This document shows positions 3,571 to 64,000 of a stretch of 64,000 nt of DNA, one piece after another (position 1 is the stretch's first letter; the number at the start of each line of letters is the position of its first letter). The notes beneath the pieces were generated by a model. It made no database searches and was not told the origin of the DNA. It saw only the letters and a list, made by a program, of their open reading frames with translations. This DNA is from an uncultured SAR86 cluster bacterium. Its GTDB lineage: Bacteria > Pseudomonadota > Gammaproteobacteria > Magnimaribacterales > D2472. Position numbers and translations under genes: made by a program. The stretch lies in the NCBI GenBank assembly GCA_902596165.1, contig CACJSU010000002.1, positions 23,245-87,244 of the forward strand, in the 5' to 3' direction.

Positions 3571-3592
3571 GTAAATTACGGTTTAAATAAAT

Positions 3593-42047: not shown

Positions 42048-42051
42048 TTTA

Positions 42052-43536: not shown

Positions 43537-43539
43537 TTT

Positions 43540-45305: not shown

Positions 45306-46988
45306 ATGATACTTACTCCAAAAAATAGAATTAAGGAATATACTGATAATGGCTGGTGGAATTCAGATACCTTATACACACTTTTTTTAGACGCTTGCGA
45401 AGAAGCTGGAAACAAAGAAGCTCTTTTAGACCCTCCAAATAGAAATGAATTTACCATTGGTGATCCAAGGAGGTTAACTTTTAATGATGTTAAAAAGGAA
45501 GTTGATAGATTTTCCTCAAAGTTTTTTGATTTAGGCTTTAGAAAAGATGACAAAGTTATTTTACAGCTTCCAAATATTGTTGAATTAGCAATTCTATACA
45601 TTGCTTTATCAAAAATAGGTGTGATTATTTCTCCGGCTCCTATTCAGTATGGCAAATTTGAAATTGAAAAGATTATCAAGGATATCAGCCCAAAGGGGTT
45701 CATTGGAATTTCTGAGTTCAATGGAAAAAATCTTATAGATGATTTAAAAGACTCATTTTCATCCAATCATGTGCTTATGTCTTTAGGTGAATCTGAAGGT
45801 TTCATAGATATATTAAATTTAAATAATCCTACGAATTTAGACGAACTAAATAATTATGTCGATTCAATGGATTATGGATCAAATGATTTACTTACAATAT
45901 GCTGGACATCCGGAACAACTGGAAGCCCAAAGGGGGTGCCAAGAAGTCATAACTTATGGGGAACAATGGCTAAGGCTGCTTATCATTTAGCTGACACACA
46001 AAAAGGAGACATTTTATTAAATCCATTTCCATTAGTTAATATGGCTAGCATAGGAGGCTTTTTGTTTAACTGGCTAATTTGTAAAGGTAAGCTTATTCAG
46101 CATCATCCATTTGATTTAGGAATTTTTTTAGATCAAATGTCTCAAGAAAAAGTTAATTACACCATTGCTGCTCCAGCTATAATGAATATGTTATTAAATA
46201 ATAAATCTTTATTTGAAAATTTAGATCTATCTAATTTACGTTCAATTGGCTGTGGTGGAGCTCCTTTGTCTGAATGGATGGTTGAATCTTTCCAAAATAA
46301 TCATGGCATAACAATCCAAAATATTTTCGGTTCAAATGAAGGCATGAGTTTATTTAGCACAAGAGACGATGTAGAGGACCCAAAATTAAGGGCGGTTTAT
46401 TTTCCAAGATTTGGTGTGAGTGAGTTTGACTGGAATAACCCTATTTCTAAAACAATTAAAACAAAACTAATCAATCTTGAAACTAATGAACAAATTTCTT
46501 CTCCAGGCCAACCTGGTGAATTATTAATTTCTGGCTCGACTGTTTTTGACGGATATTGGAATGCACCTGAAACAAATAAAGAAGTTTTCGATCATGAAGG
46601 TTTTTTTAGAACTGGAGACATGTTTGAAATTTCATCAAATGAAACTAAGAATAGATTTTATAAGTATCAAGGCAGATGCAAAGACCTAATAATTAGAGGT
46701 GGCATGAATATCTCTCCAGAAGAGCTTGATTATTTACTTATCTCTCATCCTTCTATTCTTGATGTGGCAGTTACAGGTTATGACGACAAAGTGTTGGGTG
46801 AAAAGGTTGGCGTAGTGGTTGTTCCAAACGAAGGCGAATCTATAGAGTTATCTGATATAAGTAACTTTCTCAAAGAAGCTGGGATTGCTAAATACAAATA
46901 TCCAGAGGAACTTAGGATTATTGATGAGCTCCCAAGAAATCCAGTTGGCAAGGTCTTAAGAAGGAATTTAAAAGATTTGTTTACTTAA
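45306..46988 (+). CDS. Acyl-CoA synthetase (class I adenylate-forming)
   Basis: WTSGTTGSPKG, FGSNEG, FFRTGD, GRCKDLIIRGG, LPRNPVGK. Confidence 0.92.
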   Translation: MILTPKNRIKEYTDNGWWNSDTLYTLFLDACEEAGNKEALLDPPNRNEFTIGDPRRLTFNDVKKEVDRFSSKFFDLGFRKDDKVILQLPNIVELAILYIALSKIGVIISPAPIQYGKFEIEKIIKDISPKGFIGISEFNGKNLIDDLKDSFSSNHVLMSLGESEGFIDILNLNNPTNLDELNNYVDSMDYGSNDLLTICWTSGTTGSPKGVPRSHNLWGTMAKAAYHLADTQKGDILLNPFPLVNMASIGGFLFNWLICKGKLIQHHPFDLGIFLDQMSQEKVNYTIAAPAIMNMLLNNKSLFENLDLSNLRSIGCGGAPLSEWMVESFQNNHGITIQNIFGSNEGMSLFSTRDDVEDPKLRAVYFPRFGVSEFDWNNPISKTIKTKLINLETNEQISSPGQPGELLISGSTVFDGYWNAPETNKEVFDHEGFFRTGDMFEISSNETKNRFYKYQGRCKDLIIRGGMNISPEELDYLLISHPSILDVAVTGYDDKVLGEKVGVVVVPNEGESIELSDISNFLKEAGIAKYKYPEELRIIDELPRNPVGKVLRRNLKDLFT

Positions 46989-46989
46989 A

Positions 46990-48225
46990 TTAAACCCCAA
47001 CAACAAAACTGACAACTGTTGTAGCACTTCCACCAATGTTTAATGTAGCAACATTTTTTGCATTTTCGACTTGATAATCACCAGCATTATTTGTGCATTG
47101 CTTGAAAGAATCAAGCAACATTCTGACTCCTGTAGCACCAACAGGATGACCTAAACCAATTAATCCACCGCTAGCATTTATTGGTATCTTGCCTCCCACT
47201 TCAATATCACCAGATTCAATAGCCTTCCAACTTTCACCTGGTTTGGTGATACCAAAATGATCTATAGCCATGTACTCTGTAGAAGAAAAACAATCATGAG
47301 TTTCAATAGCATCTAAAGATTCGTGGTTAGGAATTGAGGCTCGATTAAACGCATCATCAATTGCGCTTTTTACATGAGGAAAAATATAGTCACTATTTTG
47401 ACTATAATCAATTTTATCTTTTAAAGTGATAGGTCCTGTTTTGTGTCCCCAGCCTTTGATATAAGGTATATCTTCTATTCTTAAATTATTATCTTGAGCA
47501 TATTTTTTTGCCCTACTTTCATTTGCGAGAAAAATAATTGCTGCTCCATCCGTAATTTGACCACAATCAGTTTTTCTGGTTCTACCCTCAATAACTGGAT
47601 TAAATTTATCATCACGTGAAAAAGATTCACTCTCAAATGACCACCCGCGTGTTTGTGAGTTCGGATTTTTCTTTGCATTTATAAGATTAATTTCTGAAAT
47701 TCGTGATAAATGATCCTCATTAATACCATAACGTTTATCATATTCATCAGTTAATAGACTAAACATATGAGGCCATGGATATTGAATACCTTGACATTCA
47801 TGACCAGACCACATTGCAGGACCTCCGATATTATTAGCAGCTTCTTCAGCAGGAACATTTTTCATTTGCTCTATTCCAATAACAGCAGCCAAATCATACC
47901 TACCTAGCTCAAGCTCAGCTGAAGCAGCCAAGGTTGCTATACTTCCTGATGCACATGCAGCCTCATGCCTCGAAGCAGGAATTCCTTTGAAAAAGTGTTT
48001 ATCAGTAGAAGCAAAAAATCCACCTAAATGGCCCTGATTACAAAAAAGTTCAGCTGTAAAATTACCAACATGGGCAACATCAATGTCTGAAGGTTCAAGG
48101 TTTGTTTTTACTAATCCAGTATGAACGGTATCACTGAATGCATCGAATAGATCAAGATTATTTCTTGCCCAATTCTGAGCAAAATCAGTTTGGTGTCCGC
48201 CTAAAATATATACTCTCTTTTCCAT
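46990..48225 (-). CDS. SCP2-type thiolase (Rv0914c-like)
   Basis: ILGGHQTDFA, QGHLG, RHEAACASG, ETHDCF, GHPVGATG. Confidence 0.88.
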   Translation of the reverse strand: MEKRVYILGGHQTDFAQNWARNNLDLFDAFSDTVHTGLVKTNLEPSDIDVAHVGNFTAELFCNQGHLGGFFASTDKHFFKGIPASRHEAACASGSIATLAASAELELGRYDLAAVIGIEQMKNVPAEEAANNIGGPAMWSGHECQGIQYPWPHMFSLLTDEYDKRYGINEDHLSRISEINLINAKKNPNSQTRGWSFESESFSRDDKFNPVIEGRTRKTDCGQITDGAAIIFLANESRAKKYAQDNNLRIEDIPYIKGWGHKTGPITLKDKIDYSQNSDYIFPHVKSAIDDAFNRASIPNHESLDAIETHDCFSSTEYMAIDHFGITKPGESWKAIESGDIEVGGKIPINASGGLIGLGHPVGATGVRMLLDSFKQCTNNAGDYQVENAKNVATLNIGGSATTVVSFVVGV

Positions 48226-48255
48226 AAAAATATTATAAGTTTAATAGTTGAAGTT

Positions 48256-49212
48256 TCATAATGCAGTGGCTGCTTTACTTAATGGAACTGATACTTTTGA
48301 TGGCTCAACGACTTCAGAGCATGATGTGCAAATCGTTTTAATAGACAAATCTTTTCCACATGGCACATGGATTAAAGAGATAGGATTATTCTTTGAATTT
48401 AACATCCATTTATTTGCCCAAAAGTGAAGATGTATAGCAGTTAAATACCCGCTTCTTCCCTTTTTTGTAAGCCTATATTCATATCTTGCTGGCTTGTGCT
48501 GGTAAATTCTTTTCTCTATTACGCCTGCATCAAGGAATTTTTTTAGTCTATTTGCAAGTATATTTGTTGAAATCTCTAAAGCCTCATTAAATTCATCAAA
48601 CCTTCTTAAACCATAAAGTAGTCCTGCATAAACTAAACCAGTCCATCTATCGCCTAACAAATCCTCAATTTGAAAAATATTGTTACTTATGTTGTTAGAC
48701 GAATTTTCACTTCTTCGTGCTTTGAAAGATGTTAATTTAGAAAATTTTAGATTTTCTTTAATTTGAAACTGAACATCACTGATCTTGATGGTTTTATTAC
48801 AATGCTGGCAATTACTAGAGAGATTTAAGTAATTTCCGCACGAAGTATGAATAAGCTCTTCAGGAACATCGGAATTTTCAGTCCAATGATTATTCCATTC
48901 CCATAAATAGGATGCAATAGGATAGGTATCAAGACCTTTTTCAGTCAATTTGTATTCATATCTTCTAGGGCCTGACTGATAAATATCTTTATAGATAATT
49001 CCATGATCCAGGAGAAATTTTAATCTTGAAGAAAGCGTTCCCCTTGATACGCCTGTGCCTGAAATGAAATCTTCAAATTTTCTTTTTCCAAGCCAAATTG
49101 ATTTTAAAATTAGCAGCGTTGATTTATCGCCTAAAATTTGAAGCGCATATTCAACAGGACTATTAAGAATAGCATTACCAATAAATTTAGCATTTAATCT
49201 TTTATTAACCAT
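48256..49212 (-). CDS. Tandem HxlR-family winged-helix regulator
   Basis: Two repeats: LGDKSTLLIL..RYEYKLTEKG and LGDRWT..RYEYRLTKKG, each followed by H..CG..CxxC. Confidence 0.88.
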   Translation of the reverse strand: MVNKRLNAKFIGNAILNSPVEYALQILGDKSTLLILKSIWLGKRKFEDFISGTGVSRGTLSSRLKFLLDHGIIYKDIYQSGPRRYEYKLTEKGLDTYPIASYLWEWNNHWTENSDVPEELIHTSCGNYLNLSSNCQHCNKTIKISDVQFQIKENLKFSKLTSFKARRSENSSNNISNNIFQIEDLLGDRWTGLVYAGLLYGLRRFDEFNEALEISTNILANRLKKFLDAGVIEKRIYQHKPARYEYRLTKKGRSGYLTAIHLHFWANKWMLNSKNNPISLIHVPCGKDLSIKTICTSCSEVVEPSKVSVPLSKAATAL

Positions 49213-49214
49213 TA

Positions 49215-49997
49215 CTATGAAAATATCCTTGGGATTATTGAATTAGATGACTTAATATATTCGCTATAACCATTATAATTTTGACTCATCCTTTTATCCA
49301 TTGTCTTTACACCTGTTACATTAATAATTAGGTAGGAAAAAAGAATCGGGCCAATAATAGAAATTAAGGTTAGAGAGTTTACTATAGAAAATATATAGAT
49401 TCCCCACCAAAACATAATTTCTCCAAAATAATTTGGGTGCCTGCTCAGTGACCATAAACCGCTTTGAAGAAAAGTTTTCTGATTAACTTCATTTCTCTTG
49501 AATTTATTTAGTTGGATGTCTGCAACACATTCCCAAAAGAAACCTACAGAAATTATGATTAAACCAATAATATTAAAAATATTTAAGCTCGAAGTTGTGC
49601 TTGTAAAAAGTAAAAATTGAACAGGTAAGGTGACAAGCCATATAACTATCCCCTGTTTGATGAAAACCTGCCATAAAGCAAAAATATTAAAACTTAATCC
49701 TGGTTTTTTCCATTCGCGTAATTTGGTATACCTTGAATCTTCTCCATGACCAAGCTTTCTCTGAAGCATTAAAAGAGTTAATCGAACCGTCCAGATAAAA
49801 ATTATTACAAAGATAATGTATTTAAATATAGATGCAGCTGGTGATAAATATATAGATAGAAAAGTAATAACAAATATAATTGGCGCAAATGCAGTATCAA
49901 TAATACTGACATCTTTGATAATCATTGAAATTATCCACAATGAAAGAACAATAATGCTTGTTATAAGCGCAGTTTGAAACAAAAAATAAATCAGCAT
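49215..49997 (-). CDS. DUF1295 / steroid 5-alpha-reductase-like membrane protein (second copy)
   Basis: DVSIID, GEDSRY, ADIQL, GLWSLSRHPNYFGE. Confidence 0.85.
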   Translation of the reverse strand: MLIYFLFQTALITSIIVLSLWIISMIIKDVSIIDTAFAPIIFVITFLSIYLSPAASIFKYIIFVIIFIWTVRLTLLMLQRKLGHGEDSRYTKLREWKKPGLSFNIFALWQVFIKQGIVIWLVTLPVQFLLFTSTTSSLNIFNIIGLIIISVGFFWECVADIQLNKFKRNEVNQKTFLQSGLWSLSRHPNYFGEIMFWWGIYIFSIVNSLTLISIIGPILFSYLIINVTGVKTMDKRMSQNYNGYSEYIKSSNSIIPRIFS

Positions 49998-50079
49998 GTT
50001 TCTCTTAAAGTTTAATTGTGCAAGTTATATAATATTGTATAATTTCATCCTTTAAAAATCATCTTTCATTTATAAATTC

Positions 50080-50985: not shown

Positions 50986-50993
50986 TTATTTTC

Positions 50994-52448: not shown

Positions 52449-52451
52449 AAA

Positions 52452-53651: not shown

Positions 53652-53723
53652 AAATTCAGAGACTTGCTCAACTAAACTTACTGATATATATTTAATTCAA
53701 AGTAAGTTATTGGAGAAATATCA

Positions 53724-54167
53724 ATGAATGATAAAACATTAGAAGTTGTTCAAACTATGTTTGCTGCATGGGAAAGTCTTGATATGGAGGCTGTATTGCA
53801 AAACTGGCATGAAGATGGATATCTATGGAGCATGATGAATACTGAAAAAACACAAGGTCATGAAAAACTTAGAGAACACTTAAATAGGTTAATGTCCACA
53901 TGTACAAGGCTTAACATAGAAGTTCAAAATTATGTTGTAAATGGTGATACCTATATGTGTGAATGTATAGATGATTTCGATACTGAGACTGGAGGTCATG
54001 GTTATATCCCTACTGCAAGAGTGATGACTGTGAGAGATGGCAAAGTAGATCAGTGGAGAGATTATTATAATCGAGCTACATTAATGGCTGCTATGGGGGT
54101 TGAAGAATTTGATCCAAAACAAGGGAAAAAACTAATGCCAGAGGATAAAAAATTCTTCGTCTTATAA
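53724..54167 (+). CDS. Limonene-epoxide-hydrolase-like NTF2 protein
   Basis: E.ID and DGKVDQWRDYY; GGAG RBS; candidate promoter TTGCTC-17-TATATT. Confidence 0.72.
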   Translation: MNDKTLEVVQTMFAAWESLDMEAVLQNWHEDGYLWSMMNTEKTQGHEKLREHLNRLMSTCTRLNIEVQNYVVNGDTYMCECIDDFDTETGGHGYIPTARVMTVRDGKVDQWRDYYNRATLMAAMGVEEFDPKQGKKLMPEDKKFFVL

Positions 54168-54168
54168 A

Positions 54169-55338
54169 GTGTCAAACTTATTTGATCCGATAAGCATAAG
54201 ATCAATTAATTTTCGAAATAGAATTGGAGTCTCGCCAATGGTTCAGACTTCATCTTATGATGGGTTTGCAAATAATTGGCATCTCGTTCATTTAGGCTCA
54301 AGGGCCGTTGGTGGGGCTGGGCTTGTAATGACTGAAGCAACAGCTGTTGAAAAAAAAGGAAGGATCTCCCTCAATGATCTTGGGATATGGAAAGATGCCC
54401 ATATTCCAAAATTACTAGAGATTAGCTCATTTATTAAAAATCAAGGTTCCGTACCTGGAATACAATTAGCTCATGCTGGAAGAAAAGCTAGCTACTCATC
54501 TCCTCTAGATAAACAAGGACTTAGAGCCTATGCTCCTCTTGAAAAATCCAAAGGTGGCTGGGAAACTCTAGGACCAAGCCCTATACCTTTTGAAGATGGA
54601 GGCAATCAACCCAAATTAATGACAAAAAATGACATTAAGAAAGTTATCAATTCGTTCACAAAAGCAGCGTCAAGAGCTGATAAAGCTGGATTTGAATTAG
54701 TTGAAATTCATGCTGCCCATGGCTATCTTTTGCACCAATTTTATAGTCCAATCTCAAACATAAGAACAGATGCATATGGCAATGATTTCAATGGAAGAAT
54801 TCAGTTAACATTAGAAGTGGCCAAGTGTGTCAGAAAAGTTTGGCCATCTAACAAAGTACTATGCTTTAGAATTTCATTCACTGATTGGATAGATGGCGGA
54901 TGGGTTTTAGAAGACTCAATTGAACTTTGTAAAAAGTTAAAAAAAATAGGTGTTGATATAATTGATGTAAGTTCTGGTGGAACTTCCTCAAAGACTGTTG
55001 CTATTGCAAAAGAATTGATTGAAGACAGAGACAATGTTGAAATAAAAAGCGTCATTCCTCTTGAACCAGGATACCAAGTTCATGCAGCTGAATTAATTAA
55101 ACAAAAAGCAAAAATTAAGACAGCATCAGTTGGCTTAATAACAGATCCACAGCATGCACAAAATATTGTATCTTCCAAAAAATCTGATTTCGTTTTTCTA
55201 GGAAGAGAGCTGCTAAGAGACCCATATTGGCCTATAAAAGCAGCGCAAACACTCAATCAAGCAAAAAACTTATCAATACCTGGACAATATTATCTTGGCT
55301 GGAGAGATTTACTTGGTGTTAAATATAGAGGAATTTAG
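54169..55338 (+). CDS. Old Yellow Enzyme, YqjM/NamA-like NADH:flavin oxidoreductase
   Basis: HLGSRAVGGAGL, QLAHAGRKAS, HAAHGYLLHQF, GRELLRDPYWP. Confidence 0.92.
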   Translation: MSNLFDPISIRSINFRNRIGVSPMVQTSSYDGFANNWHLVHLGSRAVGGAGLVMTEATAVEKKGRISLNDLGIWKDAHIPKLLEISSFIKNQGSVPGIQLAHAGRKASYSSPLDKQGLRAYAPLEKSKGGWETLGPSPIPFEDGGNQPKLMTKNDIKKVINSFTKAASRADKAGFELVEIHAAHGYLLHQFYSPISNIRTDAYGNDFNGRIQLTLEVAKCVRKVWPSNKVLCFRISFTDWIDGGWVLEDSIELCKKLKKIGVDIIDVSSGGTSSKTVAIAKELIEDRDNVEIKSVIPLEPGYQVHAAELIKQKAKIKTASVGLITDPQHAQNIVSSKKSDFVFLGRELLRDPYWPIKAAQTLNQAKNLSIPGQYYLGWRDLLGVKYRGI

Positions 55339-56207
55339 TTTTCTAATGCTTCAAAGCTCTCACTTGCATCTTCTCGAGTGACCACTTCTTCCAGGCTCAT
55401 CAACGATTGCAAGTTATTATCAATTTCAACGTCAGAAATTTGATTTAATGCGGAGAGGTCAATTCCAGTATTCTCTATCATTTTTGCAATTTTAAATTGC
55501 CCTCCTCCAGCTATAAAAATATTTCCAGAAATTCTTTGTGACTCAAGTAAAAATTTTACAATCGGAGTAACTTTATCAGTTGTGAACTGTTGCTTTTGAG
55601 ATGTTGTTAAGAAATTCTTGGTCATGTTAGTGAAAGCAAATGGAGATAAAACATTAATATTTAAATTCTTTGTTTTTGCTTCTAAATGCAATGAATGTGC
55701 TAATCCAATAAGCCCTGCTTTAGATGATGAGTATGCCGGCATACCATGTTGGCCGAACAGTCCTGCGCCTGAGGTAGTAAATAAAATACTCCCAAAATCA
55801 TTCTCATACATGTGCTGAAAGCATGCATGGGAAACATTTACAGCCCCAGTAAAATTAATAGAAATTATTTCATTAAAATCTTGTAATGTTGTTTGATGAA
55901 ATGTTTTGCCTTCTGCGACTCCTGCATTATTTATCAAATAATCAAAAGACCCAAATTCATCTAAGCATTGTTCTAATATCTCCTTGCCGCTATTAGGATC
56001 TTCAATGCTTGAATGATTTGCGGATGCATTACCCCCCATATTTCTAATTTCTTCTACAATTTGTTCGGCAGAGCTTTTCTGGTTCTTATGAATCCTATTA
56101 TTCACAAGAACATTCATGCCGTTAGATGCAAGATATGTAGCATATGCTGCTCCCAGACCCTTACCTGCACCTGTAATAGCAACAGTTCTTTCAACCGGAT
56201 TGTTCAC
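55335..56207 (-). CDS. SDR, MFE-2/hydroxyacyl-CoA dehydrogenase-like
   Basis: TGAGKGLGAAYA, NNAG, TTSGAGLFG, YSSSK. Confidence 0.85.
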   Translation of the reverse strand: MNNPVERTVAITGAGKGLGAAYATYLASNGMNVLVNNRIHKNQKSSAEQIVEEIRNMGGNASANHSSIEDPNSGKEILEQCLDEFGSFDYLINNAGVAEGKTFHQTTLQDFNEIISINFTGAVNVSHACFQHMYENDFGSILFTTSGAGLFGQHGMPAYSSSKAGLIGLAHSLHLEAKTKNLNINVLSPFAFTNMTKNFLTTSQKQQFTTDKVTPIVKFLLESQRISGNIFIAGGGQFKIAKMIENTGIDLSALNQISDVEIDNNLQSLMSLEEVVTREDASESFEALEN

Positions 56208-56211
56208 TAGA

Positions 56212-57942
56212 TTATGCTCTTAAAAGATTTGTTTTTTTATAATCAATCTGATTATTTTTTATCATAACTTTATAAATATTTTTTGCTGCACTTGATGAAA
56301 TTTTTTTATTCATATAGTCATCTAGAACTAGTTCAGGATCTCTTTTTTCAGGGTTTCCAAAACCGCCACTTCCAGTTGTATGTATTTTTATAATGTCTCC
56401 CTTTTTTAGAGGTGTATCAATTTTTCCTGGAAGGGAATATTTTTGTTTCTTGGAGATTATTTGAGTTTTACACAATGGGGCATCATGCCCGCCTTCAATT
56501 CCCCACGGTTTGAATTTCATTCTATCTCTTCTGAAGGATCCGTAACAATCTCCTCCCATCCACTCAACTTCAGCTGTGTATCCTAAACCCCCTCGCCACT
56601 TCCCAGCTCCTCCAGAATCAGTCCATAAGAGACTTTTCTTAAAAAGAATAGGTAATTTTGATTCGCTCACCTCAATTGGAATCGGTGAACCATTCGTTGC
56701 TCCATGCTCAGTTACATCAATTCCATCTTTATTTGATCTTGCACCATGACCTCCAGCATATGGCCCCCCCATGTGACCTTGAATTCTATTTCCGTTAATA
56801 TCGAAACCAACAAAATTTACCATTGTGTATTGTCCGCTATGTGCTGCTGTCATTCTTTGTGGTAATGCCTTAGCCATAACCCCACAAATAACGTCCTCAA
56901 CACGTTTTAATGTAATACCTCTTACAGCTACAGGTGCAGGAAAAGTGCTATTAACTATAGATCCTTTTGGCAATTTAATTTTAATAGGCCTAAAACTGCC
57001 CTCATTATTTGGCACTTTATCACCTGTTAAAGTTCTGACTGCATAATAGACAACTGAATTTGGGCATGATGGAACATTGTTTATAGCAATATCAACTTGA
57101 TTATCTGTTCCATCAAAGTCAAATTCTAAATTTGAGCCTTTAACTTTGAGTGTGACGCAAATCTTTACAGGTTTTGCAGTTGCTTCTAAAGAATCATCAT
57201 CCAAAAAGTCTTCAAAATAATATTCCCCATTTGGAATTTTTTTTATTTCATTTCTTGTCATCCGCTCGGAATAATCTAATAAAGATTCAACACATTTTTG
57301 AACTTTTTTTAAACCGATTTTTGAAATTATTTCTTTATATCTTTTCACTCCTGTCAGACAAGCAGCTATTTGCCCACCAAGATCCCCTTTTAAAGTTTCA
57401 GGCACTCTGCTATTTGCTAGAATTGTATCAAAGAGCGGCTCATTAACTTTTCCATTCTTTACAATGGTTGCCATTGAAAGTATTAGGCCTTCAGCATATA
57501 AATCTTTTGCTGCAAAATTAACGCTTCCTGGAGCAAATCCACCTATATCTGCATGATGAGACATAGTCGCCACGTATCCAATTAATTTACTCTTAAAAAA
57601 AACTGGGGACACAATTGCTAAATCAGGTAAATGAGTTCCTCCGTTATACGGATCATTATGGATATAAACATCACCTTCGTTTGCCTGATGGTTAAAATGA
57701 CTTGCAAATATTCTTCCCAAATCTTGCAAACAACCAAGATGACATGGAACTGCTGTAGCTTGGGCTATTGTTCTACCTTGAGCATCAAATAAAGCAGATG
57801 TTGAATCTCTTCCATCAGTTATTAGTGGTGAGTGAGATACTTTGTATAAGACTTGTTGAACTTCTTCAGCTGCAGCATCTAATAAGCCTCTTACAACCTC
57901 AGTAGTAATTGGATCATCAAAAGACTCTTTATTCTTTTTCAT
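56212..57942 (-). CDS. Hydantoinase B/oxoprolinase family subunit
   Basis: NDPYNGGTHLPD, HHADIGG, DSGGAGKWRGGLG, GGFGNP. Confidence 0.92.
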   Translation of the reverse strand: MKKNKESFDDPITTEVVRGLLDAAAEEVQQVLYKVSHSPLITDGRDSTSALFDAQGRTIAQATAVPCHLGCLQDLGRIFASHFNHQANEGDVYIHNDPYNGGTHLPDLAIVSPVFFKSKLIGYVATMSHHADIGGFAPGSVNFAAKDLYAEGLILSMATIVKNGKVNEPLFDTILANSRVPETLKGDLGGQIAACLTGVKRYKEIISKIGLKKVQKCVESLLDYSERMTRNEIKKIPNGEYYFEDFLDDDSLEATAKPVKICVTLKVKGSNLEFDFDGTDNQVDIAINNVPSCPNSVVYYAVRTLTGDKVPNNEGSFRPIKIKLPKGSIVNSTFPAPVAVRGITLKRVEDVICGVMAKALPQRMTAAHSGQYTMVNFVGFDINGNRIQGHMGGPYAGGHGARSNKDGIDVTEHGATNGSPIPIEVSESKLPILFKKSLLWTDSGGAGKWRGGLGYTAEVEWMGGDCYGSFRRDRMKFKPWGIEGGHDAPLCKTQIISKKQKYSLPGKIDTPLKKGDIIKIHTTGSGGFGNPEKRDPELVLDDYMNKKISSSAAKNIYKVMIKNNQIDYKKTNLLRA

Positions 57943-60011
57943 CAGGTTATAGGAACTTCTATCAATAAATTATTAAATTTATCAACTTTTAAAAAATGAT
58001 TAGTATGTAAAATTGTTGTAGTGTCAGGCTGTTCGATTATAGCTGGACCTTTTAATTCAAAACCCCTAGATAAATCAGCTCTTTTATATATTGGCACTTT
58101 TTTGAAACCAAGTTTTTTTGAAAAACAAACATCCCTTAAAGTTTTATTAACAACCTTAGATTTTTTTGATTTTTTTGATTTTTCTAAAATGGAACTCTCT
58201 TGAGATAATTTTTGATGAACAGTTCTCAATGTTACAAATTCAACATCAGCAGATTTATCGCTGTAACTATAGGTATTTTGATGAATTTCATGAAATAAAG
58301 ATTGCGCTTTTGTTATTAAATTTTTATTAATTTCACCTGTAACTGGAACTTCTATTTCATGTGACTGCCCAATGTATCTCATTTCTACAAAATAATTTTT
58401 TGTTACATCTTTTTTTAAAACTCTATCTTCCCTCATGCGATCAAAGCACTCTTTATCCAAGGAAGAAAAAATACTTTTAATGTCTTTCCAAGAGCTATCG
58501 AGGGTATTTTTTTCGTAACTTGCCATTGATTCATGTTGAATAGGGGCAAGCATTAAACCCAAAGCCGAGAGAACTCCGGGAGTTGGAGGAATTAAAATTT
58601 GTTTTATCGATGATATCTCTGCTAGTTTTCCACTGTGTATTGGGCCTGCGCCACCAAATGGCATCAAAGCAAACTCTCTTGGATCATGCCCTTGCTTTAT
58701 GGATACTAACCTTAGTGTTTGCGCCATATTTGAATTGACTATCTCATGAATACCCAAGGCAGCCTCAATTAAAGAAATGCCCAGTGGTTTACATATTTTA
58801 TTTCTAATAGCTGCTTTGCTTTTCTCAATATCAATATCTAATGAACCTGCAAAAGTATCTTTATTCAGATAACCCAAAACAAAACTTGCATCAGTGACAG
58901 TTGGATTTTCTCCGCCTTGAGAATAGCATGCAGGCCCCGGAAAAGCTCCTGCACTTTCTGGGCCAACTTTTAAAGCACCACCTGCATCGACATATGCAAT
59001 ACTGCTTCCTCCTGCGCCTATAGTTCTTACGTCAATCATAGGAATATTAAGAGGATATTCTTCAAAAGCTCCATCATTTGTAATAATGGCTTGCCCATCT
59101 TTGATCAATGCAACATCAGTACTAGTTCCCCCCATGTCTAAACTAATGCAGTCAGGATACCCAGCATTTAGCCCAACATTTGCCGCTCCTATGACCCCTG
59201 CAGCCAAACCAGATAAAGCCGTTCCAACTGGTTTTTTGCATATGTTTGTAATTCCGCTAACTCCTCCATTAGATTGCATAACATGAAAAGAACAATTAGC
59301 TCCGACTTGTTCAAGAGATGATTCTAAATTATTAAGGTAATTAGTTACGATAGGTTTTACATATCCATCAAAGCCACTTACGACTAGTCTTTTATATTCT
59401 CTCTTTCTAGGTAAAATTTCACTTGAAATTGTTATAGGTATATCTGGATATACTTTTTGAAGATAATCTTTTGCCTGCCTTTCATGCTCAGGGTTAGCAT
59501 ACGAATGAAGGAAACAAATAACAAATACTTCACATTTTTCTTTTTTAACCAAAAATTTTGCTTTTGCTTTTAAATTCTCTATATCAAGCTTTCTAATAAC
59601 ATTACCTTGAAAATCCATTCTTTCATTCACTCCAATACATCTTCTTCTTGGAGCAAGAAATAATGGCTCAACTGGATCCATATTCAAGTCATACATTTTT
59701 GGTCGCCAACCATAGCCAATTTGAAGGATATCGCTGACTCCCTCAGTAAGCAACATACCTACTCTTGCACCTGATTCAGTTATAATTGTGTTAGTAGCAA
59801 CAGTTGTTCCATGAATGATTCTTTGGATATCTGCAGTTTCTTTTGATCCAAGCTTAAGTGTTTGATGAACACCATTCATAAAGCCATCGCTAAAATTTGG
59901 AGGTGTTGATGGTACTTTATTTACAATCCAATTATTGGAATCTAAATCTTTTATAAAGATATCTGTAAAAGTTCCGCCAATATCAATACCAATTTCAATT
60001 TTATTAGACAT
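57942..60011 (-). CDS. Hydantoinase A/oxoprolinase family ATP-binding subunit
   Basis: GIDIGGTFTD, HGTTVATN, DMGGTSTD, GAGGSS, GPESAGAFPGPACY, FGGAG. Confidence 0.93.
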   Translation of the reverse strand: MSNKIEIGIDIGGTFTDIFIKDLDSNNWIVNKVPSTPPNFSDGFMNGVHQTLKLGSKETADIQRIIHGTTVATNTIITESGARVGMLLTEGVSDILQIGYGWRPKMYDLNMDPVEPLFLAPRRRCIGVNERMDFQGNVIRKLDIENLKAKAKFLVKKEKCEVFVICFLHSYANPEHERQAKDYLQKVYPDIPITISSEILPRKREYKRLVVSGFDGYVKPIVTNYLNNLESSLEQVGANCSFHVMQSNGGVSGITNICKKPVGTALSGLAAGVIGAANVGLNAGYPDCISLDMGGTSTDVALIKDGQAIITNDGAFEEYPLNIPMIDVRTIGAGGSSIAYVDAGGALKVGPESAGAFPGPACYSQGGENPTVTDASFVLGYLNKDTFAGSLDIDIEKSKAAIRNKICKPLGISLIEAALGIHEIVNSNMAQTLRLVSIKQGHDPREFALMPFGGAGPIHSGKLAEISSIKQILIPPTPGVLSALGLMLAPIQHESMASYEKNTLDSSWKDIKSIFSSLDKECFDRMREDRVLKKDVTKNYFVEMRYIGQSHEIEVPVTGEINKNLITKAQSLFHEIHQNTYSYSDKSADVEFVTLRTVHQKLSQESSILEKSKKSKKSKVVNKTLRDVCFSKKLGFKKVPIYKRADLSRGFELKGPAIIEQPDTTTILHTNHFLKVDKFNNLLIEVPIT

Positions 60012-60061
60012 AAATAAATTGTTTATTTGTAAATCTATTATTAATGTTAACTGCTAAAAAC

Positions 60062-60134
60062 ATGGGCCTCAATAAATATATATATCTTAATTATCTAAGG
60101 GAAATCGAGACCCATCGATATTGTTATCTCCTTT
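60062..60134 (-). promoter_or_regulatory. Putative structured leader of the hydantoinase operon (hairpin plus RBS and micro-ORF)
   Basis: Minus strand AAAGGAG, then ATGGGTCTCGAT..ATTGAGGCCCAT 12-bp stem with two G-U pairs. Confidence 0.4.
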
Positions 60135-60257
60135 ATAATAACTTTTATTATAGAACTTACAATCATTTTTACCTAAAAAGTGCTTTAAAAAAGTCATGTT
60201 GTTACTTGTGTTATTAAATTTAACTTAATATATTTAAATAACTCGATTGATTTAATA

Positions 60258-60803
60258 ATGAAAGAAAATAAGCTAAACACTCCTCACTCTAAGAGAATAA
60301 TAAAGATAGGATCAAAAATACCTACAAATATATTTAAGGTTTTATCTGACTCAGGCGAGATACAAGAATCGATTCTATCTGATGATATTTTTAAAGATAA
60401 AAAAATTGTTTTATTTTCAGTCCCTGGAGCATTCACCCCAAAAAGCACTAATGTTCAAATTCCAGGATATTTAAATTTAGCAGAAAAAATTTTTGAACAA
60501 GGGATTGATGAGATTATCTGTGTATCCGTAAATGATGCATTTGTCATGGATGCCTGGGCGGAACATTGTAAAGCAAAAGGAAAAATTACAATGCTAGCTG
60601 ATGCTCATTGTCATTTTTTTAATTCCGTAGGTTTAGAAATGGATTGTACGAGATTTAATCTTGGATTTAGATGTGAAAGATTTTCAATGATTATTTTTGA
60701 TGGGATTCTCAAAGATCTCAATATAGAAATTGCTGGGGGTCCCGTCGATGCTTCGTCTGCAAACCAGATTCTTAAAAATTTAACAAAAAATACATATGAA
60801 TAA
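60258..60803 (+). CDS. Peroxiredoxin-5-like protein lacking the peroxidatic Cys
   Basis: KKIVLFSVPGAFTPKS (canonical PGAFTPxC), CVSVNDAFVMDAW, MLAD. Confidence 0.82.
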   Translation: MKENKLNTPHSKRIIKIGSKIPTNIFKVLSDSGEIQESILSDDIFKDKKIVLFSVPGAFTPKSTNVQIPGYLNLAEKIFEQGIDEIICVSVNDAFVMDAWAEHCKAKGKITMLADAHCHFFNSVGLEMDCTRFNLGFRCERFSMIIFDGILKDLNIEIAGGPVDASSANQILKNLTKNTYE

Positions 60804-61218
60804 AACTGAAGAAAGAAATATTAAGTTGATTAATAAATGGTTAAATGCGTGGACATTACCAGGTGGCTCTCTTCAAGAAATGTTGAAATGCTATTCAGAC
60901 AATAATGACCTTGAAGTCTATGCGCCTATTCAAGATCATTACGTTGTTAAAAAAGGTGGCAGTAGGGAATTTTGGAATAAGGGCGAGGGTAAAATTGAAA
61001 ATATTACAAAATCAAGAAAAATGAACTTATCAAACATTGTTGCCTCTGGTAATAAAGTTTCAATTGAAGGTCAAATTGATAGTGAGTCTATTGATGGTGA
61101 AAAAAAATCTTGGAATTTTGCTGTATTCTTTGAAATAGATGAATCAACAGGTTTAATTACTAGCGATCACAGCTACATGCCTGATACACCCGGTATGAAA
61201 GTTTTAAAACCTGAATAA
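60796..61218 (+). CDS. NTF2/SnoaL-like protein
   Basis: IVASGNKVSIEG..FAVFFEID..GLITSDHSY; overlaps upstream gene. Confidence 0.65.
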   Translation: MNKTEERNIKLINKWLNAWTLPGGSLQEMLKCYSDNNDLEVYAPIQDHYVVKKGGSREFWNKGEGKIENITKSRKMNLSNIVASGNKVSIEGQIDSESIDGEKKSWNFAVFFEIDESTGLITSDHSYMPDTPGMKVLKPE

Positions 61219-61229
61219 TAAAACTTAAA

Positions 61230-62111
61230 ATGAAAGAAATAATTAAGGAATTTCCACCTGGTCCCGATAAATCCCTAAAAAGAAAATATATTTCTCCTGA
61301 ACCGCTATCTATATCAAAATCTATACGCAATTCTGCTGAAAAACTAGGCTTATATGATCATTTAATTTTTTTAAGAAATGAAGGATATTGCATAATCGAG
61401 AATGTTTTTAAGGATAGATTTGTTGCTGAGATAAGAAAAAAGATAATCTCTTTAGCTGAAGAGTCAGAGGGAGATTTTAAAGGACTTTCTGCGGCAATGC
61501 TACTTGGAAGGGATCCTATATTTGAAGAAGTTGTAACAAACTCAAAATTGCTTAATATTGTCGAATTTGCTGTTGGTAAAGGGGCATTACTTTCTCAATT
61601 GCTTGGGGGTATAAGACCGCAAGGAGGTGGCAACTTTGACATTCACATTGATTCAGCTTGGACCCCTGCTCCTTTGCCTGATTATCCCTTAATGATAACA
61701 GCATGTATGCCCTGTGAAGATTTTACGCTTAAAGCAGGCCCAACAAAAGTAATACCAAAAAGCCATCTTTACAAGAGACAACCATATAAAGATGAGGTAA
61801 AAAGTGAAGATGGAGCTATACCAATTTTGTGCAAAAAAGGATCATTGGTATTTTGGTTGGGGTCAACATGGCATGGAAATTACCCAAGACTCAAAAAAGG
61901 TAAGCGAGTAGTCTTACATATTTCATTTTCTAGACTAATGATGCGACCAATTGAAAATTATGATCACTTAAATGATTCTTGGCTTAAAGGAAAGCCTAAA
62001 AGTATTAAAACTATGCTTGGCAGGGATGATTTTTTGGGAACTTCAACTAAATTTAGTGGCGGAACCGATAGAAGCAAGACAATTAAAACATTCAATAGAT
62101 CTCATTCCTAA
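61230..62111 (+). CDS. PhyH-family Fe(II)/2-oxoglutarate dioxygenase
   Basis: HID (HxD), GPTKVIPKSH, WHG, distal Arg. Confidence 0.87.
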   Translation: MKEIIKEFPPGPDKSLKRKYISPEPLSISKSIRNSAEKLGLYDHLIFLRNEGYCIIENVFKDRFVAEIRKKIISLAEESEGDFKGLSAAMLLGRDPIFEEVVTNSKLLNIVEFAVGKGALLSQLLGGIRPQGGGNFDIHIDSAWTPAPLPDYPLMITACMPCEDFTLKAGPTKVIPKSHLYKRQPYKDEVKSEDGAIPILCKKGSLVFWLGSTWHGNYPRLKKGKRVVLHISFSRLMMRPIENYDHLNDSWLKGKPKSIKTMLGRDDFLGTSTKFSGGTDRSKTIKTFNRSHS

Positions 62112-62116
62112 AAATA

Positions 62117-63442
62117 ATGGAAATTTCTCCACAAAATAATATAGATTTAAAGTATTCCTGGTATTTTCTTTCGATTATGACGCTGTCATTTGCTGTTTCA
62201 TTTATTGATCGACAAGTAATGACCTTGCTAATAGAGCCAATAAAATCTGATTTATTAATCAATGATACTCAAGTAAGTTTATTGATTGGATTTGCATTCT
62301 CAATCTTCTACATATCGATGGCTATACCAATTGCTAGACTTGTAGATAGAGGAAATAGAGTAAACATAATATCATTGGGAGTTTTTTTTTGGAGTCTTAT
62401 GACAGCAGTTTGCGGGCTGGCAAAAAACTATTGGCAGCTATTTTTAGCTAGAGTTGGGGTTGGAGTTGGTGAGGCTACCTTAACACCAGCTGTATACTCA
62501 TTGATTCCAGACTATTTTCCAAAAGAAAAATTAGGAACTGCGGTTGGTTTTTATATGTTGGGTATGTCTTTTGGGACTGGTTTTGCTTTAGTTCTTGGAG
62601 GCGCAATCTTAAGTTATGTATCGAATATTGGAGATATTGTTTTTCCTATAGTGGGTACTTTGAGACCATGGCAAGTCACGTTTGTAATAGTTGGTTTGCC
62701 AGGAATATTTTTAGCGTTATTAATCAAGCTATCGATAAAAGAACCTGTTAGAAGAAATATCTTTGACAATGACAGCAGCTCAATTGATAAAACCTCTCTA
62801 ATTTCTTTTCTTGATAACAATAAAAAAACTCTTTCTCTAATTACTCTTGCATATTCATTTGGTGGTATGGTTTTTTATGGTTTTTTAACTTGGATCCCTG
62901 AACACTTAAGACGTGCTTTTGACTGGGATATTAGTAATGCAGGATATGTTTTTGGATTAATGTTAGCTATTTTCGGATCCTTTGGAGCTGTTTTAGGCGG
63001 AAAGTTTCATGATTATATGTTTAGCAAAGGTTATAAAGATGCTCCCATAAGATGTGCTTTAATAGTCTTCTCATTGTTATTTCCTATTATGGCAATCACC
63101 CCACTTATATCTAACTCAACATTCGCTGTAGTTATGCTTGGAATTTTTTCTTTTACAATGTTTCTCCAGCAAGCAATGTCACCTGTTGCAATTCAAATGA
63201 TAGCTCCGAATCATATAAGAGCACAGGTAGTTGCAATTTTCTTTTTTATTGCCAGCTTCTGCTCAATTGGAATTGGGCCTAGCATTGTTGCTATTTTTAC
63301 AGATTACATTTTTAAAGATGAAAGCTTATTATATTATTCAATCTCAACAGTTTCAGCGATTTTTCTTCCCATTTGTTTAGTGGCCCTATACCTTTGTTTG
63401 AAACCCTATAAAAATAGTGTTTTAAGGGCAAATACAAGATAA
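62117..63442 (+). CDS. Spinster-like MFS transporter
   Basis: SFIDRQ..LIEPIKSDL, ARVGVGVGEA, DYFPKEK, WQVTFVIVGLPG, KEPVRR. Confidence 0.88.
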   Translation: MEISPQNNIDLKYSWYFLSIMTLSFAVSFIDRQVMTLLIEPIKSDLLINDTQVSLLIGFAFSIFYISMAIPIARLVDRGNRVNIISLGVFFWSLMTAVCGLAKNYWQLFLARVGVGVGEATLTPAVYSLIPDYFPKEKLGTAVGFYMLGMSFGTGFALVLGGAILSYVSNIGDIVFPIVGTLRPWQVTFVIVGLPGIFLALLIKLSIKEPVRRNIFDNDSSSIDKTSLISFLDNNKKTLSLITLAYSFGGMVFYGFLTWIPEHLRRAFDWDISNAGYVFGLMLAIFGSFGAVLGGKFHDYMFSKGYKDAPIRCALIVFSLLFPIMAITPLISNSTFAVVMLGIFSFTMFLQQAMSPVAIQMIAPNHIRAQVVAIFFFIASFCSIGIGPSIVAIFTDYIFKDESLLYYSISTVSAIFLPICLVALYLCLKPYKNSVLRANTR

Positions 63443-63535
63443 GTTTATTCCTTGCATAACTGTATCTAAAACTTGCACAATTAGACCTTGATATGCTAAA
63501 TTTATTGGAAACCTAAAATTTACTCAGGGGGAGAC

Positions 63536-64000
63536 ATGAGAAGAATTTTTCTTAGTTATTTAATTGCATTGCCTATAGCTTTTATAGGTTTCAGTTCAAT
63601 AGAAACCAATGCGCAAGAAATAGAAGAAGTAGTAGTTTCAGCAACTAAAAGAGATGAAAGTCTTCAGGATGTAAACATTGCTGTTAATGCTTTTACTGGC
63701 CAAGATTTAGATCAACTTGGTTGGGAAGATATTACAAACATAGCAAACCAAGCACCAAACGTAGATGTTAAATACGCATGGGGTAATTCAATGCCTATTT
63801 ACACTATTAGAGGAGTTGGAATGAATAGTTTCCAAGCTAGTGATACTGCAAGCGTTGGATTATTCATTGATGAAGTTTTTCAAACTTCCATTGTCAGTAT
63901 GGGCGCTCAACTATATGACATGGAAAGAGTTGAAGTTTTAAAAGGCCCGCAAAGTGCGTTATTCGGAAGAAACACTAATGGTGGTGCTGTAAATTATTTC
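63536..64000 (+). CDS. TonB-dependent receptor, N-terminal part (truncated by window edge)
   Basis: GGGGGAG RBS; signal peptide, AQEIEEVVVSATKR (TonB box), plug motif ERVEVLKGPQSALFGRNTNGGAVN. Confidence 0.93.
   Translation, partial: MRRIFLSYLIALPIAFIGFSSIETNAQEIEEVVVSATKRDESLQDVNIAVNAFTGQDLDQLGWEDITNIANQAPNVDVKYAWGNSMPIYTIRGVGMNSFQASDTASVGLFIDEVFQTSIVSMGAQLYDMERVEVLKGPQSALFGRNTNGGAVNYF

Follow-up and report, generated by a model that had tools for sequence, protein, structure and literature searches.

A two-layer gene island around a carotenoid cleavage dioxygenase in a SAR86 cluster bacterium: a candidate CoA-dependent route for an apocarotenoid-like polyene

Introduction

The carotenoid cleavage dioxygenases (CCDs) of the CCD1 type, which are carotenoid 9,10(9',10')-dioxygenases (solved structures 9m3e, 9m6z and 9luz), and the bacterial enzymes ACO, NACOX1, MtCCO and SaCCO belong to one RPE65 fold family with four conserved histidines. 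According to the excerpt of PMC5133782 used here, bacterial apocarotenoid oxygenases cut apocarotenals at the 9,10, 11,12, 13,14 or 15,15' bond. CCD1-type enzymes and apocarotenoid oxygenases have been described as stand-alone, product-forming enzymes. Here we describe a gene island in a stretch of 64,000 nucleotides (the window) from an uncultured SAR86 cluster bacterium, in which a CCD of the same fold family is instead encoded by the middle gene of a reductase-CCD-thiolase operon, within a coenzyme A (CoA)-dependent cluster that is apparently fed by a TonB-dependent receptor (TBDR).

The lignostilbene-α,β-dioxygenase (LSD) pathways, common in sphingomonads (the LSDs of Sphingobium sp. SYK-6, LsdA, NOV1/NOV2), are likewise catabolic and use CCD-family alkene cleavage for assimilation. 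Their products are aromatic aldehydes, which should have no need of thiolases. In the peroxisomal oxidation of phytanic and pristanic acids, PhyH, MFE-2/D-bifunctional protein and SCPx thiolase form the set that handles methyl-branched isoprenoid acyl-CoAs. The PhyH, MFE-2-type dehydrogenase and SCP2-type thiolase families stand together in the island too; it differs from the peroxisomal system in lacking an acyl-CoA oxidase or dehydrogenase, a hydratase-2 domain and a 2-hydroxyacyl-CoA lyase, in that its PhyH is lineage-specific, and in that the chain degraded is presumably polyunsaturated. The ATP-dependent hydantoinase family (N-methylhydantoinase 7hk5, the caprolactamase CapAB 6yra, acetophenone and acetone carboxylases) shares full HydA and HydB domains with an island gene pair, which scores under every equivalog cut-off. 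A regulator of the HxlR family is also encoded in the island, with two complete HxlR domains in one chain of 318 amino acids (aa).

Full-text literature searches gave no description of a CCD within a thiolytic, CoA-dependent cluster fed by a TBDR. Searches on DUF1295 with carotenoid, on apocarotenoid with TonB-dependent, and on apocarotenoid catabolic gene clusters or β-oxidation returned unrelated or irrelevant matches only, and among the matches listed none linked HxlR to CCD genes or named HxlR. Carotenoids are among the most abundant phytoplankton lipids, and we know of no defined bacterial pathway for their mineralisation. The original prediction, made from the letters of the window, had proposed an uptake-to-β-oxidation route for carotenoid or terpenoid carbon.

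Results

Gene content of the island

We read the island as a co-regulated catabolic cluster, a composite of two layers, that would import an exogenous methyl-branched polyene of apocarotenoid-like type and break it down by a CoA-dependent route; to this reading as a whole we give about an even chance. The grouping made in the original prediction, an uptake-to-CoA-dependent thiolytic cluster centred on the CCD, is real, co-occurs widely and goes beyond chance: gene order is kept in two relatives (65-99% protein identity), about half of the island genes show cross-class synteny, a motif recurs between the transcription units, and metagenome contigs bridge the junctions.

In what follows, G000 is the genome of the window, and G003, G007, G009, G010, G012, G018 and G025 are genomes of relatives. 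The stretches examined carry L numbers: L001 takes in the whole TBDR gene and sequence past the window end, L015 in G009, L021 and L022 in G025, and L043, L065, L094 and L106 are distant. Coordinates are those of the window unless stated. The window is G000:C2:23245-87244, and the genome comprises 1.45 Mb in 26 contigs (about 35% GC, 87% complete). From 45306 to the window end there are 17 densely packed genes. The island extends over about 25 kb, from 45306 to about 70593, its last 6.6 kb lying past the window end and reaching a tRNA-Arg gene. The genes in the window are as follows.

45306..46988, + strand: acyl-CoA ligase (AMP-binding); Pfam AMP-binding, 188 bits
46990..48225, − strand: SCP2-type (SCPx-like) thiolase; NF004936, 619 bits (cut-off 375); PF22691 (Thiolase_C_1), 95 bits
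48256..49212, − strand: single-chain tandem HxlR regulator, 318 aa; Pfam HxlR, 122 bits, in two stretches
49215..49997, − strand: DUF1295 membrane protein; Pfam DUF1295, 195 bits, and Steroid_dh, 28.8 bits
50080..50985, + strand: FabK/NMO-like FMN oxidoreductase; Pfam NMO, 77.5 bits
50994..52448, + strand: CCD (RPE65 family); PF03055, 365.5 bits
52452..53651, + strand: ordinary, degradative-type thiolase; TIGR01930, 326 bits (cut-off 240.55)
53724..54167, + strand: SnoaL/limonene-epoxide-hydrolase (LEH)-like NTF2 protein; SnoaL_2, 48 bits; LEH, 29 bits
54169..55338, + strand: Old Yellow Enzyme (OYE), NamA-like ene-reductase; Oxidored_FMN, 222 bits; lineage-specific
55335..56207, − strand: MFE-2-type short-chain dehydrogenase/reductase (SDR), last gene of the HydA-HydB-SDR unit
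56212..57942, − strand: hydantoinase/oxoprolinase B subunit (HydB), 576 aa; Hydantoinase_B, 534 bits; lineage-specific
57942..60011, − strand: hydantoinase/oxoprolinase A subunit (HydA), with a full Hydantoinase_A domain; lineage-specific, divergent
60258..60803, + strand: redoxin/peroxiredoxin-like protein; Redoxin, 75 bits; lineage-specific; heads the redoxin-140-aa-PhyH-MFS unit
60796..61218, + strand: 140-aa protein; lineage-specific, conserved in G003 and G012
61230..62111, + strand: PhyH-family Fe(II)/2-oxoglutarate dioxygenase; PF05721, 59.8 bits (cut-off 22); lineage-specific
62117..63442, + strand: spinster-like major facilitator superfamily (MFS) transporter of the inner membrane; MFS_1, 153 bits
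63536..64000 (cut by the window end; whole gene L001:781-3033), + strand: TBDR, 750 aa when whole; Plug in the window, Plug and β-barrel in the whole gene

All the gene classes named in the original prediction were recovered in their places by Pfam and NCBIfam searches; its list had omitted the DUF1295 protein, the FabK/NMO-like flavoprotein and the redoxin. As for its NTF2 proteins, the gene at 53724-54167 (+) was recognised as SnoaL_2/LEH, and the assignment of the 140-aa product of 60796-61218 is suggestive only. The latter protein has no Pfam match, even at E ≤ 5, and its structural model is poor (single-sequence, pLDDT 53). Foldseek gave weak matches to this model, none at E ≤ 0.001; nearly all those listed are NTF2-like folds (ketosteroid isomerase, SnoaL2, LEH), which may hint at an NTF2-like protein.

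Searches against solved structures backed the MFE-like SDR and spinster MFS labels of the original prediction. The SDR scored 247 bits against the MFE-2 dehydrogenase 2et6 and 146, 145 and 127 bits against 1zbq, 1gz6 and 3oml, respectively, compared with 104 bits for the best FabG, and is probably a (3R)-hydroxyacyl-CoA dehydrogenase of MFE-2 type. The transporter is spinster-like, its nearest solved relatives being the bacterial 6e8j/6e9c/6eba (167.6 bits; 6e8j is presumably a bacterial Spns homologue), followed by human SPNS2 (about 41 bits). The thiolase at 46990..48225 is of SCP2 type, with the SCP2-thiolase-like 4bi9 and 3zbg, and also 6hsj, as its nearest solved structures. The NMO-labelled protein was closer to FabK enoyl-ACP reductases than to nitronate monooxygenases and is a candidate enoyl reductase. 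The DUF1295 protein, with weak similarity to steroid 5-alpha-reductase and ICMT, is a candidate membrane C=C reductase. The PhyH protein matched no NCBIfam model.

The original prediction had related the HydA/HydB pair to acetone/acetophenone carboxylases, but a methyl-ketone-carboxylase step found no support. HydA scored 530 bits with the CapA model (cut-off 1000) and 297 bits with ApcC (cut-off 1500); the corresponding values for HydB were 271 bits with CapB (cut-off 1000) and 124 bits with ApcD (cut-off 1500). N-methylhydantoinase (7hk5) gave 431 bits with HydA and 286 bits with HydB. The acetone carboxylase alpha subunit, which has 776 aa against the 576 aa of HydB, matched the latter at 75.5 bits, over residues 17-234 only. 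Acetone and acetophenone carboxylases have a small extra subunit in their composition, and no small third-subunit open reading frame (ORF) was found among the ORFs beside the pair. At 35-40% identity, HydA and HydB are members of the hydantoinase/oxoprolinase family that appear to lie outside the acetone and acetophenone carboxylases and nearer to the lactam and hydantoin hydrolases (caprolactamase, N-methylhydantoinase) than to the ketone carboxylases. HydA occurs at 80% identity or above in only 2 of 40 relatives (G003 and G012), and nothing above 38% identity was found in 400 genomes of the class; hence, neither a donor nor a context can be named.

At and past the window end, the contig carries the full TBDR gene, an SDR, second copies of the spinster-like MFS (46% identical to the first), of HydB (on its own) and of PhyH (PF05721, 72.6 bits; 27% identical to the first), and then tRNA-Arg(ACG). 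The two features with mapped positions are:

L001:5157-6896 (about 67912-69651 of the window): second HydB, 52% identical to the island HydB and about 9 kb from it
L001:7925-8001 (about 70680-70756 of the window): tRNA-Arg(ACG), beyond the window end

The second HydB has no HydA partner and shares its unit with the second PhyH and the second spinster-like MFS. The single HydA may be shared between the two HydB proteins.

Conservation in relatives and in distant genomes

We compared 40 relatives, of which 15 have a CCD orthologue at 66% identity or above. The whole gene order, 01-22, is kept only in G003 (95-100% protein identity; CCD 98%) and in G012 (55-88%; CCD 80%), in the latter split over two contigs that both end inside the island. 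In G009 (CCD 80%), only the ligase, the SCP2 thiolase and the FabK-like-CCD-thiolase genes are kept, and the tRNA-Arg gene lies directly beside the thiolase. G007, G010, G018 and G025 (the last with two copies) have a five-gene core, consisting of thiolase, CCD, FabK-like, SCP2 thiolase and ligase genes, at 61-78% identity. This core is in another genomic setting, with URO-D on one side and, in three loci, PsiE and CIA30 on the other; a different TBDR adjoins it at four of the five loci, and the second G025 copy is cut by a contig end. No HxlR or DUF1295 gene was found at these core loci. Ligase homologues (61-99% identity) are present in the nine relatives' loci that cover that side. The window holds the extended form of the cluster, regulator included, in a genus where the stripped five-gene form is the more usual.

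In G025, a DAPG-hydrolase-like gene was seen beside both core copies, and at one copy a tannase/feruloyl-esterase gene stands between the TBDR and the thiolase (genes at L021:32-772 and 3359-4840, on G025:C5, and at L022:700-1458, on G025:C16).

When 185,579 species genomes were scanned with the CCD alignment, 553 relatives of the CCD were confirmed. The best 80 of the 553 (56-64% CCD identity) are the distant loci referred to below; partner genes were counted within 10 kb of the CCD, and many of these loci are short contigs. They come from Sphingopyxis, Phenylobacterium, Woeseia, Parasphingorhabdus, Hyphococcus, Brevundimonas, Lentisalinibacter and others, i.e., from both Alpha- and Gammaproteobacteria. 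Many carriers are sphingomonads, and soil and freshwater Alphaproteobacteria are among them. The SCP2 thiolase was the most frequent partner (34/80, mostly at 55-69% identity), followed by the tandem HxlR (31/80), the TBDR (28/80; it also stands beside the CCD in four relatives), the FabK-like protein (28/80; 44-60% identity), DUF1295 (28/80), the CoA ligase (27/80; 40-51% identity) and the thiolase (25/80). The SDR was counted in 7/80 loci at the strict and 15/80 at the relaxed threshold, SnoaL in 5/80 and 16/80, and the MFS in 7/80 and 8/80 (35-44% identity), respectively. Both 10-kb flanks are present in 41 of the 80 loci; 25 of these hold at least three partners, and 19 hold at least five.

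None of the 80 distant loci has OYE, HydA, redoxin, the 140-aa protein, either PhyH or the flavin monooxygenase, and HydB gave one match, at 28% identity. Co-occurrence elsewhere, which the original prediction had offered as its own check, was therefore borne out for the core genes, in relatives and in distant loci alike, but not for the hydantoinase pair, OYE, PhyH and redoxin.

The island is built of two layers. The first is a cluster common to many Alpha- and Gammaproteobacteria, comprising the TBDR, MFS, CCD, FabK-like protein, ligase, two thiolases, SDR, LEH/SnoaL, DUF1295 and HxlR. The second layer, found only in the lineage of G000, G003 and G012, comprises OYE, HydA/HydB, redoxin, the 140-aa protein, the two PhyH proteins, the second MFS and the second HydB. 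Genes of both layers are interleaved in the same transcription units, with joining gaps of −8 to +11 bp (SnoaL-OYE, 1 bp; HydA-HydB, −1 bp; HydB-SDR, 4 bp; redoxin-140-aa-PhyH-MFS, −8, 11 and 5 bp). Because the second-layer genes are packed into units with conserved genes, because one strong motif site precedes the SnoaL-OYE unit, and because metagenome contigs bridge the junctions, they are likely to be functionally integrated in this lineage, a claim drawn from three related genomes.

Pfam analysis of four loci gave larger versions of the cluster in Hyphococcus and Parasphingorhabdus, with several LEH/SnoaL and SnoaL_4 proteins, two ligases and two or three SDRs; SnoaL-type proteins are present in several copies in L065 (Hyphococcus) and L106. 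At one locus, in a metagenome-assembled genome of Woeseia sp. (L043:8086-9840), the gene immediately upstream of the CCD encodes a 584-aa thiamine-diphosphate enzyme, and an operator-like site separates the two genes. This enzyme could be a partner of the 2-hydroxyacyl-CoA-lyase type for α-oxidation.

Assembly or binning artefact was ruled out as the source of the arrangement, since the junctions thiolase-SnoaL-OYE-SDR-HydB and HydB-HydA are spanned by contigs of three marine metagenome runs, each independent of the others and from a different study. The metagenomes that hold the island stretch are mostly marine. Low-depth joints skipping 4-15 kb were seen in metagenome runs X2 and X4, with sides of only 21-24 letters; these were set aside as probably belonging to other strains or repeats.

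An operator-like motif and the tandem HxlR regulator

Comparison of the island's intergenic spacers yielded a 19-bp word with a consensus of about AAGTcTaaTTgTGCAAGTt, the ends of which form an AAGT(T) repeat, 14 bp apart. At three mismatches or fewer, it occurs four times in the window, against 0.06 expected, and all four sites are intergenic. These sites, along with one weaker site, are listed below.

48237..48255, + strand: operator-like site 12 bp ahead of the SCP2-thiolase start, differing from the seed at 3 positions; kept in G003
50008..50026, + strand: operator-like site (the seed), in the spacer between the divergent DUF1295/HxlR and FabK-CCD-thiolase units; identical in G003 and G012
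53661..53679, − strand: operator-like site between the thiolase and the SnoaL-OYE unit; position kept in G003 and G012
61208..61226, − strand: weak operator-like site just upstream of PhyH; 4 mismatches; 14.4 bits, within the genome background and individually uncertain
63470..63488, − strand: operator-like site upstream of the TBDR; top score in the genome with the cross-taxon matrix

In the whole genome, five matches were found at three mismatches or fewer. Four are those of the island; the fifth, at C4:22440, is inside a 1016-aa ORF and was taken as chance. At four mismatches there are 17 further matches, two of which directly precede the two PhyH genes. G003 and G012 keep the motif sites. 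The clusters of G007, G009, G010, G018 and G025 yielded no intergenic motif site, nor any HxlR gene in the stretches examined there.

A matrix built from the four window sites only was applied to the 80 distant loci. It gave 26 sites of at least 14 bits, as against 3.4 per mononucleotide shuffle, and 25 of the 26 precede a CCD, FabK-like, TBDR or SDR gene by no more than about 190 bp; at the exception, in L094, the site overlaps an annotated thiolase start. Upstream of the Hyphococcus TBDR (L065), a match to 15 of the 19 positions was seen by eye. With the cross-taxon matrix, which includes four of the island sites, the three best sites of the SAR86 genome are in the island (27.0, 26.0 and 21.8 bits), the next scoring 16.8 bits. 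Seven of the 21 genome sites of at least 14 bits fall in the island, which makes up 1.5% of the genome; the weaker island sites are individually within background. Candidate sites before the CoA ligase and in the HydA-redoxin spacer (about 6 mismatches, counted by eye, or 14.0 bits) were indistinguishable from background and are not claimed.

Because the presence of the HxlR gene tracks that of the motif, the tandem HxlR protein probably binds the 19-bp motif as an operator, acting as repressor or activator of the island.

The CCD and the proposed pathway

The CCD, the product of the only RPE65-family gene of the genome, is a member of the superfamily, with an RPE65 domain spanning residues 30-478 (PF03055, cut-off 27 bits). 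H179, H227, H290 and H474, which we take to be the iron ligands, are invariant in a six-sequence CCD alignment (A1), and H179, H227 and H474 pair with histidines of 9m3e and LsdA. The nearest solved enzyme is the carotenoid 9,10-dioxygenase 9m3e (E = 2e-57), ahead of LsdA (7.5e-42) and ACO. Among NCBIfam models, the lignostilbene models NF053778 (197.3 bits; cut-off 800) and NF053780 (161.5 bits; cut-off 650) and the NACOX1-type, 8'-apo-carotenoid 13,14-cleaving model NF052295 (195.6 bits; cut-off 675) all scored below their cut-offs.

Gene content, synteny, the motif, the protein families and the lack of stilbene-binding residues are observed; for the pathway we infer the mechanism, the substrate class, the order of the steps and every single reaction, as also the binding of the motif by HxlR. 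The TBDR would let a hydrophobic, conjugated, methyl-branched polyene from outside (an apocarotenoid or a carotenoid-derived acid or aldehyde) past the outer membrane, and the MFS transporter would carry it across the inner one. The cytoplasmic CCD would then cleave the C=C bond that blocks further oxidation, and the ligase would activate the acid fragments. Shortening would proceed by hydration, dehydrogenation of the MFE-2 type and thiolysis in alternation: 2-methyl-branched 3-ketoacyl-CoA would go to the SCP2 thiolase and the unbranched form to the ordinary thiolase, with alternate release of propionyl-CoA and acetyl-CoA. An acyl-CoA dehydrogenase would not be needed, because the chain is already unsaturated; the set of enzymes is just what a conjugated, methyl-branched polyenoyl-CoA would require. 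A methyl group on the β carbon would call for a separate device, candidates for which are CCD cleavage and, in this lineage, α-hydroxylation of the PhyH type; the PhyH enzymes would handle 3-methyl branches. The FabK-like protein, OYE and DUF1295 may serve as reducers of conjugated C=C bonds, and the NTF2/LEH proteins as hydratases, isomerases or epoxide openers.

An MFE-2 dehydrogenase and an SCP2-type thiolase are the enzyme pair for oxidation of methyl-branched acyl-CoAs (the peroxisomal pristanic-acid enzymes). Since the SDR of the island is of MFE-2 type and one of its thiolases of SCP2 type, the cluster would fit isoprenoid chains. No phytoene synthase (PF00494) was found in the 87%-complete genome, so a carotenoid substrate would be exogenous, which is consistent with the TBDR.

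Several observations weigh against this reading. The island has no aldehyde dehydrogenase, no enoyl-CoA hydratase (crotonase or MaoC) and no acyl-CoA dehydrogenase, and casting the NTF2 proteins as hydratases is a guess. No characterised orthologue of the CCD was identified, and in terms of hidden Markov models the enzyme is equidistant from the lignostilbene and apocarotenoid models (197 versus 196 bits), with both scores far under the cut-offs. Seven of the 41 full-flank distant loci have no partner gene and seven more have one only. A pathway role for the second-layer genes finds no support in the distant loci (0/80) and draws on operon packing and on motif sites at background score. The G025 neighbours hint that some versions of the cluster act on phenolic esters or other phenolic substrates. 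Evidence of expression is weak: contigs of one metatranscriptome (X20) touch 19 of 30 bins, but such libraries can contain DNA and contigs cannot show transcription; by the same token, uncovered bins were not read as silent.

Discussion

The cluster might degrade another unsaturated hydrophobic acid, such as a polyunsaturated or branched lipid, a polyene natural product or an alicyclic terpenoid acid, with the CCD cutting a bond that β-oxidation cannot pass. The substrate cannot be told from enzymes of uptake, CoA activation and thiolysis, and the nearest NCBIfam models of the ligase, each matched at less than its cut-off score, include those of long- and medium-chain fatty-acid, cyclohexanecarboxylate and FadD3-type ligases. 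The DUF1295, NTF2 and MFE-2/SCP2 enzymes together recall steroid and bile-acid side-chain chemistry. We nevertheless regard such a substrate as unlikely: the known CCD substrates, so far as the sources excerpted here describe them, are conjugated polyenes or aromatics of the 4-hydroxystyrene type, and the solved enzyme nearest to the island CCD is one that cuts carotenoids.

An extension of the apocarotenoid reading would make the TBDR-fed island a link to light harvesting. Imported phytoplankton carotenoids or their oxidation products would be cut by the CCD, one fragment giving retinal or a retinal-like chromophore and the rest entering CoA-dependent β-oxidation of the polyene under control of the tandem HxlR and its operator. 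We hold this extension to be doubtful; if it is true, the same regulon in other Proteobacteria would be a widespread, unrecognised sink for carotenoid carbon.

It seems improbable to us that the CCD and the TBDR serve mainly to supply proteorhodopsin with retinal cut from scavenged carotenoids or apocarotenoids, and that the CoA enzymes merely dispose of the other fragment. The genome does contain a rhodopsin gene (G000:C1:110697-111338), and its single RPE65-family gene and apparent lack of phytoene synthase would suit scavenging. No blh/BCD gene (PF15461) was found in it at 87% completeness, although the same search matched no control genome either. That SAR86 must scavenge pigment has been proposed by Dupont et al. 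2012 (PMC3358033, in the portion cited here). However, rhodopsin occurs in 33 of 41 related genomes compared with 24 of 41 for any CCD match, and in family f4, with genomes 91-97% complete, four of five have rhodopsin and none of the five a CCD match. The CCD, moreover, is co-transcribed with thiolases and does not stand beside the rhodopsin gene, and the same cluster and motif occur in soil and freshwater Alphaproteobacteria, which may or may not have rhodopsin themselves. Retinal supply is possible as a side benefit of the catabolic cluster.

Phenolic alkenes (stilbenes, isoeugenol, and lignin or algal phenolics of the hydroxycinnamate type), degraded in the style of the lignostilbene dioxygenases, have little probability as the substrates. 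A lignostilbene model is the top NCBIfam match of the CCD, and LsdA is the second-best group of solved structures; in G025 the tannase/feruloyl-esterase and DAPG-hydrolase genes flank the core, and sphingomonads are numerous among the carriers. The 197 bits of that top match, however, are far under the 800-bit cut-off, and the residues speak otherwise. According to the excerpt of PMC8191317 used here, LSDs hold the 4-hydroxyphenyl group of the substrate through Phe59, Tyr101 and Lys134. In the HMMER alignment, the island CCD keeps only Phe59 (F69); the catalytic Tyr101 and Lys134 are replaced by M112 and Y149, respectively (posterior of about 0.7 at these two columns). F69, M112 and Y149 are all invariant in alignment A1, and no Lys or Tyr is present within about 5 residues of the M112 or Y149 positions. 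The CCD thus lacks the Tyr/Lys pair of the stilbene-cleaving subfamily and appears to fall outside it, which argues against stilbene-type substrates, an alternative named in the original prediction. Aromatic aldehyde products, furthermore, would have no use for two thiolases and an MFE-2-type dehydrogenase.

There is also a slim chance that the island does not support growth but answers stress or detoxifies reactive electrophiles, namely the unsaturated aldehydes and ketones that arise when lipids and pigments are photo-oxidised. OYE and a redoxin are present, HxlR-family regulators typically sense aldehydes or electrophiles, and the mostly marine metagenomes holding the stretch suggest sunlit surface water as the habitat. 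OYE and the redoxin, however, are lineage-specific (0/80 distant clusters), and the dedicated TBDR and MFS, along with the CoA ligase and the two thiolases, speak for import and for recovery of carbon.

If the island does degrade an apocarotenoid-like polyene, its regulon would mark where pigment carbon is turned over, in the surface ocean as in sediments, lakes and soils, and would be a concrete candidate for pigment scavenging in rhodopsin-bearing bacteria without retinal synthesis. It would also offer an alternative account of one SAR86 'nitropropane dioxygenase' gene. Dupont et al. 2012, in the portion cited here (PMC3358033), counted 'nitropropane dioxygenases' in SAR86 and read them as evidence of nitro-aromatic degradation; a FabK-like copy co-transcribed with a CCD suggests a role other than that. 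Cultivable carriers exist (Sphingopyxis, Parasphingorhabdus, Hyphococcus, Brevundimonas, Lentisalinibacter), which makes the question directly testable; the inducer could be traced by way of the operator and the tandem HxlR.

Genomic surroundings of the island

Directly upstream of the island (38707-44634) are genes of cyclic di-GMP and two-component signalling, encoding a 992-aa hybrid histidine kinase, a response regulator, a HisKA-REC-GGDEF protein and an EAL protein. This block adjoins the island in G003, G009 and G012 too.

At the other end, tRNA-Arg(ACG) marks a variable spot, or hotspot, at which no integrase was seen. The 17-kb block from SnoaL to the second PhyH sits exactly between the cluster thiolase and the tRNA gene in G000, and in the same place in G003 and G012. 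In G009, the tRNA gene (L015:4222-4298) abuts the cluster thiolase, with an APH kinase and a luciferase-like monooxygenase on its other side.

Beyond tRNA-Arg, the contig continues with genes for a flavin monooxygenase, peptidases, a P450, a thioesterase and a fatty-acid hydroxylase. The genes for the P450, the 4HBT thioesterase and the hydroxylase (L001:13889-16983, about 76644-79738 of the window) are conserved at 76-82% in G009, and on that account belong to the backbone of the genome and not to the variable block.

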